Positions 1,176 through 49,808 of a stretch of 64,000 bases of DNA are shown piece by piece; the first letter of the stretch is position 1, and every line of letters begins with the position of its first letter. The position numbers and the translations under genes were made by a program. Source of the DNA: Eledone cirrhosa (lineage: Eukaryota); contig OZ024746.1 in assembly GCA_964016885.1 (NCBI GenBank), forward strand, positions 30,318,001 through 30,382,000. The letters run 5' to 3'. The notes beneath the pieces are model-generated. The model was given only the letters and a program-made list of their open reading frames with translations, ran no database searches and had not been told where the DNA came from.

Positions 1176-1907
1176 GTATATATATATATTAGATATTAAT
1201 TTAACAATGAAAATAATAACAACAAAGTCAAGTTATTTTACCTATTCATATCATTGTTTTACGATCGTTTCGGAGGGTTGATCATATTGACATACTGACT
1301 TATCTATAGCAGTTATATACTATCAGACTTCATATAGGTTCGATCAGAATCTTTATTGGTAGTATGGATTACTCACTATCGGATTACATTGAGTTATATC
1401 TACGGTTCAGACCCTACCACGAAGGGTAGACCATATTGAAAAAGAAAAAATATATATATATATGTTATTTACATGTCTGTCTACATATCTATCTACCTAT
1501 CTGTCTCACTGTCCCATATCTCCCTTTCTCTGAATCTCTTTCCTTCCCTCTTTCATTTTTATAGTTTTATTACTAATACAATTTGTGGAAGATGCAAATC
1601 GTATGCCGTAGTATACAAGTTAATGAAAGCGACGTGGAATTGAGTCTTTACGTAGGGTTTATTTCTTGTGGGTATGAGACAGTCCCATATACATGGCTAT
1701 CTTCCTATCTTTCAGGGCCTGGTGCCAATGTATAGGTTGAACTCTTTTAGGCTTTGAGTATGTAAAGAACTGTCTCTGAATCACGGGTCACCTGACTGGA
1801 AAATATAATTCGTTGTTAATATCGATTTTTTTAAATATATATATAAAAAAATTGATCAAATAGAAAAGAAATGTGATTATGTATATATCTGAATCATCTG
1901 AGTTATG

Positions 1908-2126
1908 TAAATGAGATATTAAAGCTACGGCTTCACTACCTTTAGTTAATATGGGTGGTCGCTAAATGAGATATTAAAGCTACGGCTTCACTACCTTTAG
2001 TTAATATGGGTGGTCGCTAAATGAGATATTACAGCTATTTCACTAATTTTAGTTAATATAGGTTGGCGCTAAATAAGGTATTACAGCTACGACTTCACTA
2101 TTTTTAGTTAATATAAGTGGTCGCTA
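1908..2126. repeat. ~55-bp minisatellite, 4 diverging copies
   Basis: Unit taaatgagatattaaagctacggcttcactacctttagttaatatgggtggtcgc repeated in tandem; later copies carry substitutions and a small deletion. Confidence 0.85.
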
Positions 2127-2427
2127 AGTTTAATGAAAACTTTCTCCAAATTATGGAAATTTCTGTGGACATTTCTGAAGCAAACAGAAAGAGAGAGACA
2201 TCAAAAATAAGGTGGAAGCTGCAGGGAGGGTTTCTAGATGGTTATTGCTTAAGAGAAGTGTCCGGTGAGGTCTGAAGTGTGTAAGACATTTGGTCACTAA
2301 CTGAGGCTTTATCAACCTCGGTCGGATTACCTGGATGAGGGTCACTATAATGTAAAATCTAATAAACTCTGACTGCAGGATACAGCACGGATGATGTGTT
2401 CTGTAGTCAGGTAACCTGAACGTGAAT

Positions 2428-5400
2428 GTATGTTGTAAAATCTAAAACAGCCAGTAACTGCAGGATACAACGGAGATTATGTGTTCTGTAGTCAGTTCAT
2501 CTGGATAAGGATGGATGTTGTAAAATCTAAAACAGCCAGTAACTGCAGGATACAACGGAGATTATGTGTTCTGTAGTCAGTTCATCTGGATAAGGATGTA
2601 TGTTGTAAAATCTAAAACAGCCAGTAACTGCAGGATACAACGGAGATTATGTTCTGTAGTCAGTTCATCTGGATAAGGATGGATGTTGTAAAATCTAAAA
2701 CAGCCAGTAACTGCAGGATACAACGGAGATTATGTGTTCTGTAGTCAGTTCATCTGGATAAGGATGTATGTTGTAAAATCTAAAACAGCCAGTAACTGCA
2801 GGATACAACGGAGATTATGTGTTCTGTAGTCAGTTCATCTGGATAAGGATGTATGTTGTAAAATCTAAAACAGCCAGTAACTGCAGGATACAACGGAGAT
2901 TATGTGTTCTGTAGTCAGTTCATCTGGATAAGGATGTATGTTGTAAAATCTAAAACAGCCAGTAACTGCAGGATACAACGGAGATTATGTGTTCTGTAGT
3001 CAGTTCATCTGGATAAGGATGTATGTTGTAAAATCTAAAACAGCCAGTAACTGCAGGATACAACGGAGATTATGTGTTCTGTAGTCAGTTCATCTGGATA
3101 AGGATGTATGTTGTAAAATCTAAAACAGCCAGTAACTGCAGGATACAACGGAGATTATGTGTTCTGTAGTCAATACATCTGGATAAGGATGTATGTTGTA
3201 AAATCTAAAACAGCCAGTAACTGCAGGATACAACGGAGATTATGTGTTCTGTAGTCAATACATCTGGATAAGGATGTATGTTGTAAAATCTAAAACAGCC
3301 AGTAACTGCAGGATACAACGGAGATTATGTGTTCTGTAGTCAGTTCATCTGGATAAGGATGTATGTTGTAAAATCTAAAACAGCCAGTAACTGCAGGATA
3401 CAACGGGGATTATGTGTTCTGTAGTCAGTTCATCTGGATAAGGATGTATGTTGTAAAATCTAAAACACCCAGTAACTGCAGGATACAACGGAGATTATGT
3501 GTTCTGTAGTCAATTCATCTGGATAAGGATGTATGTTGTAAAATCTAAAACACCCAGTAACTGCAGGATACAACGGAGATTATGTGTTCTGTAGTCAGTT
3601 CATCTGGATAAGGATGTATGTTGTAAAATCTAAAACAGCCAGTAACTGCAGGATACAACGGAGATTATGTGTTCTGTAGTCAGTTCATCTGGATAAGGAT
3701 GTATGTTGTAAAATCTAAAACAGCCAGTAACTGCAGGATACAACGGAGATTATGTGTTCTGTAGTCAGTTCATCTGGATAAGGATGTATGTTGTAAAATC
3801 TAAAACAGCCAGTAACTGCAGGATACAACGGAGATTATGTGTTCTGTAGTCAGTTCATCTGGATAAGGATGTATGTTGTAAAATCTAAAACAGCCAGTAA
3901 CTGCAGGATACAACGGAGATTATGTGTTCTGTAGTCAGTTCATCTGGATAAGGATGTATGTTGTAAAATCTAAAACAGCCAGTAACTGCAGGATACAACG
4001 GAGATTATGTGTTCTGTAGTCAGTTCATCTGGATAAGGATGTATGTTGTAAAATCTAAAACACCCAGTAACTGCAGGATACAACGGAGATTATGTGTTCT
4101 GTAGTCAATTCATCTGGATAAGGATGTATGTTGTAAAATCTAAAACACCCAGTAACTGCAGGATACAACGGAGATTATGTGTTCTGTAGTCAGTTCATCT
4201 GGATAAGGATGTATGTTGTAAAATCTAAAACAGCCAGTAACTGCAGGATACAACGGAGATTATGTGTTCTGTAGTCAGTTCATCTTGATAAGGATGTATG
4301 TTGTAAAATCTAAAACAGCCAGTAACTGCAGGATACAACGGAGATTATGTGTTCTGTAGTCAGTTCATCTGGATAAGGATGTATGTTGTAAAATCTAAAA
4401 CAGCCAGTAACTGCAGGATACAACGGAGATTATGTGTTCTGTAGTCAGTTCATCTGGATAAGGATGTATGTTGTAAAATCTAAAACACCCAGTAACTGCA
4501 GGATACAACGGAGATTATGTGTTCTGTAGTCAATTCATCTGGATAAGGATGTATGTTGTAAAATCTAAAACACCCAGTAACTGCAGGATACAACGGAGAT
4601 TATGTGTTCTGTAGTCAGTTCATCTGGATAAGGATGTATGTTGTAAAATCTAAAACAGCCAGTAACTGCAGGATACAACGGAGATTATGTGTTCTGTAGT
4701 CAGTTCATCTGGATAAGGATGTATGTTGTAAAATCTAAAACAGCCAGTAACTGCAGGATACAACGGAGATTATGTGTTCTGTAGTCAGTTCATCTGGATA
4801 AGGATGTATGTTGTAAAATCTAAAACAGCCAGTAACTGCAGGATACAACGGAGATTATGTGTTCTGTAGTCAGTTCATCTGGATAAGGATGTATGTTGTA
4901 AAATCTAAAACACCCAGTAACTGCAGGATACAACGGAGATTATGTGTTCTGTAGTCAGTTCATCTGGATAAGGATGTATGTTGTAAAATCTAAAACAGCC
5001 AGTAACTGCAGGATACAACGGAGATTATGTGTTCTGTAGTCAGTTCATCTGGATAAGGATGTATGTTGTAAAATCTAAAACACCCAGTAACTGCAGGATA
5101 CAACGGAGATTATGTGTTCTGTAGTCAGTTCATCTGGATAAGGATGTATGTTGTAAAATCTAAAACAGCCAGTAACTGCAGGATACAACGGAGATTATGT
5201 GTTCTGTAGTCAGTTCATCTGGATAAGGATGTATGTTGTAAAATCTAAAACAGCCAGTAACTGCAGGATACAACGGAGATTATGTGTTCTGTAGTCAGTT
5301 CATCTGGATAAGGATGTATGTTGTAAAATCTAAAACAGCCAGTAACTGCAGGATACAACGGAGATTATGTGTTCTGTAGTCAGTTCATCTGGATAAGGAT

Positions 5401-6972
5401 GTATGTTGTAAAATCTAAAACACCCAGTAACTGCAGGATACAACGGAGATTATGTGTTCTGTAGTCAGTTCATCTGGATAAGGATGTATGTTGTAAAATC
5501 TAAAACACCCAGTAACTGCAGGATACAACGGAGATTATGTGTTCTGTAGTCAGTTCATCTGGATAAGGATGTATGTTGTAAAATCTAAAACAGCCAGTAA
5601 CTGCAGGATACAACGGAGATTATGTGTTCTGTAGTCAGTTCATCTTGATAAGGATGTATGTTGTAAAATCTAAAACAGCCAGTAACTGCAGGATACAACG
5701 GAGATTATGTGTTCTGTAGTCAGTTCATCTGGATAAGGATGTATGTTGTAAAATCTAAAACAGCCAGTAACTGCAGGATACAACGGAGATTATGTGTTCT
5801 GTAGTCAGTTCATCTGGATAAGGATGTATGTTGTAAAATCTAAAACACCCAGTAACTGCAGGATACAACGGAGATTATGTGTTCTGTAGTCAATTCATCT
5901 GGATAAGGATGTATGTTGTAAAATCTAAAACACCCAGTAACTGCAGGATACAACGGAGATTATGTGTTCTGTAGTCAGTTCATCTGGATAAGGATGTATG
6001 TTGTAAAATCTAAAACAGCCAGTAACTGCAGGATACAACGGAGATTATGTGTTCTGTAGTCAGTTCATCTGGATAAGGATGTATGTTGTAAAATCTAAAA
6101 CAGCCAGTAACTGCAGGATACAACGGAGATTATGTGTTCTGTAGTCAGTTCATCTGGATAAGGATGTATGTTGTAAAATCTAAAACAGCCAGTAACTGCA
6201 GGATACAACGGAGATTATGTGTTCTGTAGTCAGTTCATCTGGATAAGGATGTATGTTGTAAAATCTAAAACAGCCAGTAACTGCAGGATACAACGGAGAT
6301 TATGTGTTCTGTAGTCAATTCATCTGGATAAGGATGTATGTTGTAAAATCTAAAACAGCCAGTAACTGCAGGATACAACGGAGATTATGTGTTCTGTAGT
6401 CAGTTCATCTGGATAAGGATGTATGTTGTAAAATCTAAAACAGCCAGTAACTGCAGGATACAACGGAGATTATGTGTTCTGTAGTCAGTTCATCTGGATA
6501 AGGATGTATGTTGTAAAATCTAAAACAGCCAGTAACTGCAGGATACAACGGAGATTATGTGTTCTGTAGTCAGTTCATCTGGATAAGGATGTATGTTGTA
6601 AAATCTAAAACAGCCAGTAACTGCAGGATACAACGGAGATTATGTGTTCTGTAGTCAATTCATCTGGATAAGGATGTATGTTGTAAAATCTAAAACAGCC
6701 AGTAACTGCAGGATACAACGGAGATTATGTGTTCTGTAGTCAGTTCATCTGGATAAGGATGTATGTTGTAAAATCTAAAACAGCCAGTAACTGCAGGATA
6801 CAACGGAGATTATGTGTTCTGTAGTCAGTTCATCTGGATAAGGATGTATGTTGTAAAATCTAAAACAGCCAGTAACTGCAGGATACAACGGAGATTATGT
6901 GTTCTGTAGTCAGTTCATCTGGATAAGGATGTATGTTGTAAAATCTAAAACAGCCAGTAACTGCAGGATACA
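2428..6972. repeat. 85-bp tandem satellite, 53 full units plus a partial unit, with diverged units on both flanks (~2350-2427 and ~6973-7145)
   Basis: Unit GTATGTTGTAAAATCTAAAACAGCCAGTAACTGCAGGATACAACGGAGATTATGTGTTCTGTAGTCAGTTCATCTGGATAAGGAT; period 85 (e.g. 2851, 2936); one PstI site per unit; few variants (cagcc/caccc, cagtt/caatt, ctgg/cttg). Confidence 0.97.
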
Positions 6973-7715
6973 AGACAGAAGATGTGTCTTGTGGTTGGAT
7001 AACATGTTTATAGGTGTATGTTGTAAGACATTGAACCCCCAGTAATTTCCCAGGATACAGCACCTAAGATGTGTCTTTAGTCAAGTGAACTGTATGAGGG
7101 TGTATGCTGTAATACCTGGAACCCGCAGTGACTCCAGGATACTTCTTATTTCGTAAAGATGAAGTTTTTTCAGTGGTTATCCAAGAATATCTGTAGGATA
7201 CGGAACTTTGATATACTTCTATTTGTTACAGGTATGATAGGACATAGGAAAAATATTCCGGCTAGTTCAACATCCGAGTATTAGCTACTTGAAAATGATT
7301 GAAGTAATTTTCGATGATGGAATTTTGAAATACTGAAAATAGATTGAAATATAACGGAATGCCAAACTCGAATTGAAATCAATAATTCTGGCTTCGGTCC
7401 AATCTAATTTAAGCAGCAGGAAAATAAATGAAAATTTATAAAGATATAATCTAAATGTAGTTTACTATGAATGGGTCTTTGCGGGGTACTATCACATGAA
7501 TATATTTATGGTATGTGGAGGACATTGAAGATGACTTCGGCAGCAGAAATCGGTTGAAATCAAATGTAGTATTTAGCTACTGTCATCTAGATTTTAAGTT
7601 CAAATAATCCTAGTCGTCTTACGAAATCTATAGTAAAACAGTAGAATTTAAAACAAGGAAAAAATAGTAATACTCTGCAACGTCATAAAGTGACACAGTA
7701 AATCATAAGACGTTG

Positions 7716-7764
7716 GTTATCTTTACGAGTTTCAGATATTATTTTCTCCTCATCAGAACATAAC
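7716..7764 (-). ncRNA. degenerate minimal type I hammerhead ribozyme motif
   Basis: Minus strand GUUAUGUU-CUGAUGA-(weak stem II)-GAAAC UC GUA-AAGAUAAC; stem I 7/8 paired. Confidence 0.45.
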
Positions 7765-8425
7765 TACACCTATGTTTCTACTTACAATGTTACTTATGTC
7801 GGGCGTGACTAAAAGGATCAATCTAATTAAAACTGAGTTGAGATAAATGTGACATGATCACAGCATAAATACACAAGGCATACATGGATATAAATTAGAT
7901 TTTATAACGTCAATTGCATATATATCTCTCTCAACATATAAATTATGCACATCCAAATAAATACATATCTAAAAAAAAGTTTCAAGTATATATAGGATTA
8001 TTCCAAGAATTGAAAAAAAAGAATGCTTTTTTTTCAAAAAAGCTCATATTTACAACTTTACTGATTTATAGGGATTTAAGAACCGGCTGGCATATTTATG
8101 ACTATTTACAAATATTAGTAAAATATATCATCTTAAATAAAATTAAGTGGTTATTCACAACTAATATATTTGCGAATGTTATCAAAATAAACTGCAGCCG
8201 CGCCATGCAATCGAGTATGACTTGGTAGTAAGTACCATGCTTTCACCGTCTCGATCCTCCCTCATTTATCTAGTGGAACAGCCAGGATGTGACAACCAGA
8301 AAGGGAGAGAAGTGGAGCTGAACTAGCACAGGGTTGGTACTTTATTGGCAGTAAAAGGATGAAAAGCAAAGTGAACTTCGGCGAGATTTGAACTCAGATC
8401 CCAGAGACCCAAAACAAATATCCAT

Positions 8426-10831: not shown

Positions 10832-12099
10832 ATCAATGTTTGCACATATAATTAACCTCCTATTCAACTGAACAATAATATAGATACATATAAATTGATG
10901 TTGTGAGCAACAGTTTCGTATTTACAGGGTGGAATGGATGTGATATATGTATTCAAGTTCAAATTCAAATCAAAATTAAAATTAAAATCAAAAGCACGGA
11001 GTGGAATACATGCAACAGTTAAAACAAGGGAATAGTCCAAATATTAAAGAGGCATTGAGGAGCAGTTTTGAGAAAGGAAGAGTGCGATAAAAATTCATAT
11101 GCAGACGTGTGGATAGTGTGACTGCATAATTTCATATACATGAGACGGAGACAACAAAGCTATTATGCATATATAGATGAATAAATACTGCAATTGAAGC
11201 AAATATGTTAATGTAGTAGAGTCTATGGTGGGTGTTGAATGTTGATGGTTTTCGAATTAATATGTGTTGAGAAACATACAGTTTTTGCAGACTTTTCCAT
11301 GACATATGTTGAATTAAATTTTAGTTAATGTTTATATTGAGTGTTTTAAGTTAGTTAGAGCAATGGATTGTAAATTAGTCTTAATGAATTCATATTCATA
11401 GACTATATTTGATCAACCGTTAAATTTTCAATCGTTAATTTCCGGAAGTAAATAAGGGGAGCTAATGCGTAAGGGGAGGTAACTAGCTAATTAAGTTCAA
11501 TTCAGTTATTAAAATTCTTTGTTCTAATACACAATATAATGGGATACCATTGGATCTCTGTTACATAACCCTGTACATTTATGCGTGATTTTAAATACAT
11601 TGTATTCTACTATCATACATTAAAGGTTTCTTTAGATTTTTATCTATTCATTACTGGACAAGGTTAATGTTATGAAGGATTATACAGCTGTTAATTTGTC
11701 ATAATAGATATGCTATATGTGTAATAATATAATCCCTAATATAGAATGCTATTACATTTTATATTTAATTATAAGTGTATATATACTTTATTATTATTAT
11801 GTTGTGTAATTTAAGCATTTAATTATACAATTACAAATGCACAGAGAGTTTATCATCACACATTACATTAAATGTCTCTACATACCAAGTGCCAAATATC
11901 CATTACTGTATAAGATATAATTAATCTATTGTAGTTATATTACAAGGTGGTAACTCTATGTCTAATTCTAACTGTTATTGCAGAGCATAAGGTTATAGAT
12001 GAATAGGAGTTGTGTAATAGAAAGAGTTGGTCGAGGGGTTTGTGGTTGTGGGTGCTGCTAAGTCCAAGGTGTATTAAATTTGTTATAGTCAATTCTTAC

Positions 12100-13767
12100 T
12101 ACACCTCTATTTCCACCTATCCTATTAAATAAAGCTCTAATTATGGCCATGAACAATAGTTACCTGACTAGATCCCAAATTGATGTAATACTTGCGGCCC
12201 GAAAAACCATAATTACATTTGAAGAACAATTTGGGACCCGCAAGGATACGCATAACAACTTCGACATAACCATGGGATCTAGTGACTCGGCGCAGGTCAA
12301 CGATTTGGTGGGCCTATACCTACTTAATGAAATCCATAAGAACCTACCCTACCTCAACGGTGGTGTATACTGCGATGATGCGCTTCTTCTCATAGACTAT
12401 AAAAAATTTAATATAGAAAAAACTAGGAAATAGTTACACAAAATTTTCAAAAACTACAACTTAAGTATCACCTTAGATAAAACACTAAAAACGTCAACTT
12501 CCTTGACGCTACCCTTAGCCTAGACTCTAGAATATACACACCCTATCATAAACCTAAGGAAAAACTAATTTATGTGAACACCAACTCTAACCACCCTAAA
12601 TCCATATTAAACTCCATTACCAAAGGAATATCTAATAGATTCTCTAATCTATCATATAATGAGACTATATTTAACAATAATTCACAATACTATAATGAAA
12701 CCTTAGCTAAATCAGGACATAAGAATGAGATTGAATTCCTACCTATAAAATCACATAGTTACAACATTATTTCTCATAATAGGGCCATGCGGAAAAATAG
12801 TAAAAACACTAGCCACTATATCCCTAAGACGAAGATTAATACCAAACTTAACTCGCACCAAAGTAAACACCACAATAATAATTTAAACAGGGATATAAAT
12901 ACCTCAAAAAACAATACTATAAACAAAAATAGAAGGAGAACTAATACATTCTTCAATCCCCCTTTCAATCTAAACGTCTCTACCAACTTGCCTAAGGCTT
13001 TCTTCTCAATCTTAGAAAAAAACTTCCCGACCGGCCACAAGTACCATAGCCTTATCAATAAAAATACAATTAAAATATCGTACTCCACCACACCTAACAT
13101 AGCATACCATATAGCTAGTAGTAATAAAAGGAAGATTAATAACTATTTACAACTAATTAAAACACAACAGGAGGTAAACTTAGTATCTGTAAACAATAGT
13201 AGTAATAATAGTAATAATGATAATAGCACTAATGAAATCAATAACAATACGAATGATAGGCATCATTACCTTAGTGCTACCCCTAGCAACCAGAATTCTT
13301 CACAACATAAGAACCGGCAAGCTAACACCCAGAATAAATGTAACTGTAGAACTAATAGAACTTGCCCCTTAGGTAATCATTGCTTAACCAAAGACATCAT
13401 CTACTCATGCACCGTCAACGCAAACAACTCTTCTAAAACATATATAGGTTCTACTTCGAACAACTTCAAGACGAGATACAACTCGCACCTCCACTCTTTC
13501 AAAAAACACAATCTAGCTAGCACCACTTCTTTATCTAGCTACATACACTCTATGAAAACTAGGAATAGACCATTTACACTGTAATGGGAAGTAGTAGGTA
13601 GGGCCTCATCGTATAAACCACCGAATAAATTGTATAATATCTGCCTTCTGGAGACCCATACTATAATCTTTTCGAAACTAGACCTCCTTAATAGAAAGTC
13701 AGAGACATTTTCCTCGTGCCAACACCGGTACCGACACTCGTTCCATAACTTTAAACCTAGCTGTTAG
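12100..13767 (+). pseudogene. disrupted Penelope-like RT + GIY-YIG endonuclease polyprotein
   Basis: RT motifs FDITMGSSDSAQVNDLVG, GGVYCDDALL and VNFLDATL; linker FFNPPFN; CNCRTNRTCPLGNHC; IIYSCTV...TYIGSTSNNFKTRYNSH; C-terminal NICLLE..LLNRKSE..CQH. TAG at 12431, frameshift ~12480, TAA at 13582. Confidence 0.92.
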
Positions 13768-47504: not shown

Positions 47505-47800
47505 TGTGCCTGTGTGTCGAGTGATTTGTGATGTAATGTAAGGAAGAACATAGACCACGACCCCACTATAACTGGAACAACCACCACGGACTTGCTAAAA
47601 CTCATAACAAGGACCCGATCGTACACGGCTACCTACTTTCACTCCGACTAGAGTGTGATTTGACAGGCTCTCTAGATTATTGGTTTGGTGATTCTATTTT
47701 ATCTCTTCACTTTTAATTTTTTATATTGATCTTTTAATCTAGTGTCATAACTACACCAACATATATGTAATGTAGTTTTAGGGCATATATATATATATAT

Positions 47801-49808
47801 TTGGTGTGGAGAAATGCGTAGAAATGATCAGTGAGATCAATGTTGAATTCGGTGGGATTGATGCCAGTGAGCTGGGACTCCCACTCAAACTTACCTATAG
47901 TAATAATTATCTAGATACATATGGCCTTAGCAACCTGTGCCCTACAAGACCAGCAAGAGGCAGACCACCTACCATTACCTCAATGGCCAAGAAAACCCAC
48001 ACAGATAGATGGAACAGGTGGACCAGAGCCATACGGACCCCCGAAAACCACGATGAACTAAAGAAAATGATTGCACATGCGGTGGGGGCAAGCATAAAAT
48101 TAACCCTTAAGGAACATATGTTCAAATTTAATGGAAAAACATATGCTGAAGAGGAGGGAGCAGCCATTGGTGTTAGCATTGCAGGTGACATAGCTAACCT
48201 ATTCATGGTATGGTGGGACAATGGACTTAAACTTAAACTTAAAGAACAATTAGAAGACAGCAACCCCTTAACCCTGATAATGTACTCCCGCTACGTTGAT
48301 GATATAAACATCGTAGTAAAAATACCCCCAATAGAGAACAGTCAGGAATTAGAGAAAAACACCATGGAAAGATTCCAGCAAATAGGTAACTCCATCCACC
48401 AGAGTATTAGAGTTACTATAGACTACCCAAGCAAACACCCCAACCATCGATTACCTGTACTAGACACAGAGCTCTGGTTAGATAATAATAATAACAAAAA
48501 ACAAATCCCCCATTCCCATTAAGCCAAACCCATGACTTCCAAATATATGATCCACCAAAACTCAGCTGTTTCGGACCATACCAAAATCAACATACTGATT
48601 GCGGATTTGGTACAGGTGATGAAAAATGTGTCCCGCATGTACAACCCCAAAGAACTAGAGAGACACATACAACACTTCACCCACCGTATGCAGTTCTCTG
48701 GTTACAATCAGAGAGATAAAATCAGAGTATATATAGGAGCCAGAACCAAATGGGAAACAATGGTAAATAATGACACAAATGGGACCTGCCCCTTGAATAG
48801 GAGCAAATTTTGGAATAGAATAGAAAGAACTAGGAATAAGGTTAATAGAATAAATTCATGGTATGATAGCAATAAATACCAGAGTGTAATGTTCATCGAT
48901 ACAACCCCTAGAGGTGAATTAGCTTACAAATTTAGAAGGGCCCTAGATAAACATAAACTCAATATTAAGATAGTAGAAAGACCAGGTTCAACCATAAACA
49001 AACTTATTAGCAATACATACCCTTTACAAAGACCTCCCTGTATAGATAAGAAATGTATAATCTGTAAATTAAGCCCCCATATTAACTGTAAAACTAGAAA
49101 TGTAGTATATAGCATAAGATGTACTGAAGGACAATGTAGAGATAAGAATATAGTGTACATAGGTGAGACAGCTCGTAGTATAGGGGAACGGATAAATGAA
49201 CACTGGCGAGACCTTCAAGATAGTAAAGAATCATCTGTACTCTACCAACATGCTAAAATAGAACATAAGGGTAAATTAGAGAACATAGAAATAAAAATAG
49301 AATCTACACACAGAAAAGACGCAATGTTTAAACAAATCACAGAGGCATAAACATAAATAAACTCCAACCAATATTAAACAGAAAACATGAATGGAACAGC
49401 AACATCACAACTTACAATTAAGGACAAAATGAAAACACACACGCACATAGAACAAACAACCAACCAGTAATATGTAAATAAACAAATAAATAAACAAATA
49501 TAAACACACACAGACACCCGGATGTAACACATGCGCAAACTAAGCACAGAACACACACAAAAACAAGATGGCGTAGGACAGAACAAAGGAGAGGCACAAA
49601 AACAAAGAAAAGAATCCCCAGTCACTGAAGAGGTCAGAGAATGCGCGAGGAAAGAACTTTGACAATATATAAACAATCATCTGGTTGTGGAACCAACCAA
49701 CCAACCGGAAATTTATAAATTCCTAAATTTATAAATTTATTATAATAAATTGAAGTGAAAGCAACTGGTGCGTGTGTTTCTTATTGGCAACATGACCCTC
49801 CCAAATAT

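Follow-up and report, generated by a model that had tools for sequence, protein, structure and literature searches.

The window, a 64,000-nucleotide (nt) stretch of contig OZ024746.1, contains a tandem array of 85-bp units (2372-6973; 54.2 copies, 98% matches). This array lies inside a decayed copy of a retrotransposon without long terminal repeats (non-LTR), of the HERO/Zebulon type, a group encoding a reverse transcriptase (RT) and a restriction-like endonuclease (RLE). An initial annotation had suggested selection on an RNA hairpin that each unit can form. Our analysis instead makes it highly probable that the array consists of 54 near-identical copies of one mutated module from the 3' end of the element. 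Their amplification, as ordinary DNA, likely came long after the element had inserted, and we predict that they have no catalytic activity. In intact elements the module contains a rewired, pseudoknotted hammerhead core, predicted to cut and likely to rejoin the element RNA.

An array inside a decayed retrotransposon

The features of the locus, all on the plus strand, are as follows (ORF, open reading frame; Pa, Pb and B are helices of the module described below).

2125..7187, plus strand: whole copy of a decayed, 5'-truncated HERO/Zebulon-type RLE non-LTR retrotransposon of an old subfamily; contains the array
2182..2268, plus strand: remnant of the RT-RLE ORF, its last 28 codons and stop (translation and profile match)
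2292..2299, plus strand: decayed 5' strand of helix Pa (from alignment), the proper pairing partner of the sequence following CUGANGA; confined to the head, where it occurs a single time
2300..2322, plus strand: hairpin Pb, 7 bp with a 9-nt loop (predicted fold and covariation), adjoining the stem II 5' strand on its upstream side; confined to the head
2323..2401, plus strand: first copy of the putative ribozyme module, with stem II 5' strand, helix B, cut-site strand, GAAA block, stem I and core (2388-2394); GAAA block and core mutated
2372..6973, plus strand: 85-bp array made up of 54 copies of a single module that was broken beforehand, with C3, U4, G8 and G12 changed
2457..2492, plus strand: example of the 13-bp hairpin; in its inner 7 pairs a Pa 3' strand that has lost its partner binds the stem I/B region, the outer 6 lie at the duplication junction
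6960..7165, plus strand: last diverged modules, not amplified; the final one lacks the hairpin
7160..7187, plus strand: decayed 3' tail of the element, approximate; by eye, a second tail-like stretch reaches about 7207

The limits of the element come from alignment: from about 2125 the head aligns at 68-72% to three copies that carry a single motif (L061, L063 and L069), and the alignment of the tail stops at 7187. The ORF remnant matches the end of a profile built from relatives (E 6e-6, six frames of 600 nt), and the order ORF end, module, tail is found both in the window and at other loci. Within the array four of the ten core bases of the module are changed in the modal unit, CTGANGA is absent from 2100-7300 and the array yields no hammerhead parse; we predict a catalytically dead minisatellite. 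Three contig sets from one sample, whose kind is not on record and which is possibly the source of the window DNA itself, cover the head, and in them the repeat stands at about 15-60 times the depth of the head.

Other identities were considered and rejected. All frames of the unit are closed, which disposes of a coding repeat (EGF-, antistasin- or zinc-finger-like). Box C/D small nucleolar RNA (snoRNA), precursor microRNA, hepatitis delta virus-like and classical type I or III hammerhead folds were weighed by eye and dismissed. Rfam gave zero matches at E<=5 for window positions 1800-2900 and one weak snoRNA match, on the minus strand, for eight relatives, while our hammerhead parser gave one weak chance match on the minus strand of the window, outside the array.

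Hammerhead wiring of the parent module

The parent module was reconstructed from metagenomic relatives of the element. Of 80 loci, 16 were dropped because the ORF end or enough 3' sequence was missing. The 3' ends of the remaining 64 are widely diverged but keep CUGANGA and GAAA. A descriptor of a hammerhead with scrambled block order (CUGANGA, GAAA and a NUH cut site) parsed 40 of the 64 relatives, and none of the 64 ORF windows, 64 reverse complements or 1280 shuffled sequences that served as controls. The cut site is GUH in 36 of the 40 parses and AUA, with a matching change in stem III, in the other four (that G never occupies the H position is a condition of the parser), and G10.1-C11.1 is a G-C pair in 37.

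Covariation gives the order of the module as Pa5'-Pb-II5'-B-III3'-cut-I3'-short linker-II3'-GAAA-III5'-B'-I5'-CUGANGA-Pa3'. The blocks thus stand in the non-circular order cut site, GAAA, CUGANGA (S-G-C), with 0-11 nt, mostly 2-5, between stems I and II; the 5' strand of stem II lies upstream of all blocks, and Pa, Pb and B are additional helices. In a MAFFT alignment of 27 rows picked from the 40 parsed sequences, 26 of 28 pairs show two-sided change and 91% of cells pair, against 66% in shuffled and 35-42% in slid controls. Selection by the parser inflates stems I, II and III, in which 95-98% of cells are paired with two-sided changes (only two columns of stem I being alignable). Pa and Pb are not required by the parser, and two-sided change is seen in all seven pairs of Pa and all eight of Pb. 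The conventional arrangement fails: a stem II placed directly after the core is paired in 41% of cells against 43% when shuffled, and three or more pairs can form directly after CUGAnGA in only 2 of the 40 parses. A kink-turn pattern between stem III and helix B occurs in 26 of the 40. It is thus well supported that the parent module is a hammerhead ribozyme with all its parts present in an unusual wiring, and cleavage is predicted. The loop of Pb in L072-L146 and in young copies of the element is often the palindrome UGAUCA, which is absent in some relatives; it may be a kissing-loop or protein site.

The closest known design is the type-SGC hammerhead, with which, going by parts of the report that describes it (Eckert et al., 2023; PMC10085705), the parent module shares the order cut-site block, GAAA block, CUGANGA, the short linker between stems I and II and all core bases. 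Unlike type SGC, the module has its stem II 5' strand upstream, Pa and Pb bridge A9 and G10.1, and helix B with its kink-turn pattern extends stem III. In the same parts of that report, type SGC is drawn from metatranscriptomes and not from the genomes of known organisms, and the block is assumed to be unbroken, with stem II following CUGAnGA after no more than 1-2 nt. If our reading is right, the broken A9-G10.1 link extends hammerhead permutations past this three-block scheme, and such ribozymes would escape Rfam. Neither a HERO ribozyme nor this wiring was found in the literature searched, which did not cover subscription papers, Repbase or Dfam; a term search of the main text of 10.64898/2026.07.22.740005 returned no mention of HERO.

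It may be that the array is dead and that the parent module is itself a non-cleaving, hammerhead-like fold that a protein binds to recognize its template. Genomic copies continue through the predicted cut without a break, the link from A9 to G10.1 is interrupted, and R2 proteins bind a pseudoknotted RNA of the 3' untranslated region, as described in part of PMC12222951. Yet among relatives whose proteins share 33-87% identity with the query, the stems are free to vary and CUGANGA, GAAA, NUH and G10.1-C11.1 are conserved exactly; we consider a non-cleaving fold unlikely, although it fares best among the alternatives.

The dispersed family and the history of the array

A search of the genome (3.0 Gb and animal-like) with the array end returned 105 matches from 40 scored candidates, from which 36 further loci were retrieved, so that 37 loci were examined including the window. 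The 36 others hold 1-65 full units each, with periods of about 85-100, and most share a common upstream head and a short tail. Long arrays of 6-65 units, seeded by the same module, are present at 11 of the 37 loci. Longer copies were found by a protein search with the ORF end. Two of these, L058 and L059, contain RT pieces (Pfam RVT_1 above cut-off), then a C-terminal RLE and then one copy of the module; the endonuclease motifs PD and ELTVPW are present in near-full elements, so that RT is followed by a C-terminal RLE (PD..D/E), as in HERO. The family divides into a young subfamily, whose copies have one module and in which RT and RLE were seen, and an old subfamily, to which the copy in the window belongs; the two are tied together by the module and the ORF end. 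When old copies were sought through protein similarity only, three of the nine that have a 3' end proved to carry tandem modules (query locus excluded). In units of the old subfamily a 2-nt insertion beside the cut site is frequent (54 of 96 units); it disrupts stem III and creates a hairpin that involves the stem II/B strand. The first unit of the window has this insertion (2339-2347) and the amplified unit lacks it, so both variants occur at one locus.

The 190-aa ORF end has 454 relatives, with identity of up to 87% in fish, and is 62% identical to the Tetraodon protein cluster AAN12398.1/BAC82599.1, whose members we take to be Zebulon and HEROTn. Like the Tetraodon elements, this family has a single RT-RLE ORF, varied insertion sites that include several microsatellites, and head-to-tail copies; in the window only a truncated and decayed 3' end is left. 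Bouneau and colleagues are said to have described partial tandem arrays of Zebulon in 2003, a structure that a circular intermediate would explain. The CCHC region before the endonuclease is frameshifted in the copies read, and L059 has an N-terminal Cys/His-rich stretch, in the region aligning to the Tetraodon protein; parts of PMC2790886 give the HERO clade a CCHC motif before the endonuclease and no N-terminal Cys-His motif. The 3' flanks of the copies are unrelated to each other and several are (TA)n or (CA)n, which fits the HERO habit of mostly non-specific insertion, in some cases into microsatellites, that is set out in part of PMC4640811.

The young subfamily bears on the fate of the element RNA. 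A canonical parse is found at 11 of its 24 loci, and 20 of the 24 share one tail end, 88 nt past the predicted cut. Four of the 24 continue from that tail position into the head of the element, unbroken across the predicted cut, and one of these is a dimer with a period of 3,599 nt. This pattern agrees with a model in which the RNA is cleaved, its ends are rejoined to make a circle, and copying begins at one fixed point: cleavage and religation of the element RNA would give a circular RNA of 3.6 kb, and reverse transcription from a site 88 nt past the cut may go more than once round it. A ribozyme in the 3' end of an R2-like long interspersed nuclear element (LINE), together with copies that read on into their own head, would thus point to a circular RNA intermediate, which bears on the use of RLE elements as RNA-templated insertion tools. 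Among the partial young matches there was no clear enrichment of copies beginning at the cut; headless old copies starting at the cut were also considered, but only two of about nine lie within 4 nt, which is about what chance gives.

Further observations concern the spread of the family. Proteins of the young subfamily (L059:4600-7850) are 74-87% identical to those of conger and dab elements, and its DNA is 88% identical over 1.9 kb to a marine metagenome contig. If the host genome is that of an invertebrate, as our impression of its repeats suggests, this would point to horizontal transfer of the young HERO subfamily. No relative of the element was found in the viral contigs searched. RLE pieces of the family, lacking the 3' end, sit on scaffolds of 507 and 353 nt in two bacterial assemblies (L152 and L153) and are likely animal DNA contamination. 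One young copy (L066:7230-7805) is followed by an inverted partial copy of its own 3' end across a (TA)n tract.

How the module became an array is best seen from substitutions and junctions. The amplified unit of the window differs from the family majority by 14 substitutions, four of them in the core, and array units differ from their own mode by a mean of 0.74, which argues that amplification came after decay. In the old subfamily the duplication junction is not at the cut site and recurs with two lengths, short at 29 and long at 11 of 36 loci. At 15 two-unit loci the units share on average 1.4 of about 7 derived changes, as against 0.65 between loci. Two recurring junction lengths and so few shared derived changes suggest that the first duplication likely took place in source copies or during reverse transcription. 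We suppose that the template slipped between the tail and the Pb 3' arm, so that source copies came to hold the module twice, with the two shared junctions, and that at some loci one decayed unit of this seed was later expanded by slippage or unequal exchange. A modal unit with an intact core is present in only 2 of the 11 long arrays. The ORF end of this old subfamily has likewise given rise to arrays (L061, about 5540-7420; L064, about 7700-8100; oriented coordinates), so this genome appears to expand many such pieces.

Alternatively, the module by itself may have formed a mini-circle like that of a retrozyme, with rolling-circle reverse transcription producing the array and its length being fixed at insertion. 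The unit does correspond to one ribozyme module, both junction types are mixed at four loci, and circle-yielding hammerhead tandem repeats are described in parts of PMC7229834. However, 26 of the 37 loci keep at least 58 nt of the shared element head upstream, the arrays run out into the normal tail, a part that such a circle would not have, the 14 private substitutions common to all 54 units indicate copying after decay, and a full hammerhead parse was obtained at only one of the 37 tandem loci; a mini-circle origin is thus improbable. Going by parts of PMC7229834 and 10.64898/2026.07.22.740005, the array resembles animal non-LTR retrozymes and the hammerhead satellites of newt, schistosome and cricket in being a tandem repeat with a hammerhead-based unit. 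Retrozyme units are there put at 150-450 bp; they hold functional type I hammerheads, are expressed in circular form and have a link to Penelope-like elements; here, unlike those units, an 85-bp unit of other wiring and with a dead core lies between the head and tail of a LINE. The array is also like the transposon-derived mini- and satellites of PMC6947457, in which a mobile-element fragment with short near-repeats on either side multiplies in place; in the parts of that review examined, none is HERO-derived.

A broader scenario would join these observations. HERO elements would carry a working hammerhead (S-G-C order, split catalytic strand, kink-turned brace) that circularizes their RNA, and in the old subfamily RT would have slipped at the folded A9/G10.1 junction, so that retrotransposed multimers of the module seeded 85-100 bp satellites genome-wide, including this array. 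We regard this scenario as about evenly balanced between right and wrong.

The array hairpin and its surroundings

The array hairpin itself is real as a fold. The main hairpin has 13 contiguous pairs, three of them G-U, and a 10-nt loop, and it is specific to the plus strand (-14.8 kcal/mol against -3.1 on the minus strand), as the initial annotation had it; the 16-bp stem at 2369-2410 likewise folds as described there. The 14-bp stem at 6959-6996 also forms, but the changes in its 3' arm are one-sided transitions tolerated through G-U pairing, with zero compensatory double changes. At 7052-7077 the eight pairs claimed can be drawn, and the minimum free energy (MFE) structure has seven. Two features did not appear in that annotation: a fifth diverged unit at about 7126-7165 has the 5' arm without the 3' arm, and within the array the unit at 2627 lacks 2 nt of the 3' arm. 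Against 200 shuffles in RNA folding, the excess is modest for the main unit (z -2.06 on the plus strand and 0.09 on the minus strand) and strong for the first unit (-4.28). There is no excess for unit 6950-7034 (-1.36), and for unit 7035-7119 (0.15) the hairpin is absent from the whole-unit MFE structure. Hairpin-driven slippage of the DNA was rejected, since the unit folded as DNA (z -0.45) is no better than its shuffles.

We measured decay over 96 units from the 37 loci, each long array being cut to its modal, first and last unit. The array hairpin decays like neutral DNA. The 13-bp stem and the background have the same substitution rate (0.114 and 0.114), and double changes in the stem keep pairing in 2 of 11 cases. 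Of 186 single-sided changes, 61 leave the pair intact, where the mutation spectrum would lead one to expect 57.7, so that pairing is disrupted at the neutral rate, an outcome that the initial annotation had itself named as refuting, and the proposed selection on the stem is not borne out. Covariation is equally lacking in the 27 distant relatives, where the inner seven pairs hold in 65% of cells against 61% when shuffled. The 10-nt loop had been read as a variable spacer of fixed length; it is the decayed CUGAUGA catalytic core region, and modal units carry deletions in the loop or 3' arm in 4 of the 11 long arrays. The 3' arm is Pa3'; with no Pa5' in internal units, it pairs instead with the stem I region, which is similar to Pa5', the outer six pairs using the duplication junction. 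The idea of an origin in RNA structure was therefore right in that the sequence derives from a structured plus-strand RNA, but it named the wrong structure and the wrong site of selection.

Several points weigh against our reading of the array and its parent module. The descriptor left 24 of the 64 relatives unparsed, and the 27 aligned rows were chosen among parsed ones, are related to each other and include two that are misaligned. Cleavage, ligation and a circle are predictions; head-to-tail copies could come without a circle from multimeric transcripts or template jumps, and of seven partial young matches only one has its start no more than 4 nt from the cut, with a second joining at a distance of up to 5 nt after an internal deletion. 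The HERO label rests on protein likeness (pairwise identity) and on the names that we take the Tetraodon proteins to bear, and not on a tree. Finally, the hairpin of the window is the most complete among the 11 long arrays (13 of 13 pairs, as against 3-12 in the others), and the stem contains none of the six substitution sites found within the array (by arithmetic, a chance of about 0.11). These last two points and the strand-specific fold would suit a functional plus-strand RNA of more than 50 hairpins (a scaffold, a protein-binding array or a small-RNA precursor) newly co-opted at this locus, but given neutral decay across the family, no covariation in relatives, a stem deletion in one unit, a flanking unit without the hairpin and other arrays grown from units with 3-12 pairs, we think such a function very improbable.

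As a dead transposon-derived minisatellite, the array alone carries little weight, and it is the parent element that matters; what the locus illustrates is a way in which a putative ribozyme module can turn into a satellite while the array has no function as RNA.

Elsewhere in the window, a 55-bp minisatellite of four copies (1908-2127) adjoins the 5' edge of the element. Two broken ORFs on the plus strand, at 12089-13581 and 47782-49347, look by eye like Penelope-type RT with a GIY-YIG endonuclease, and the first has a Cys-rich linker of the kind known from Naiad elements.

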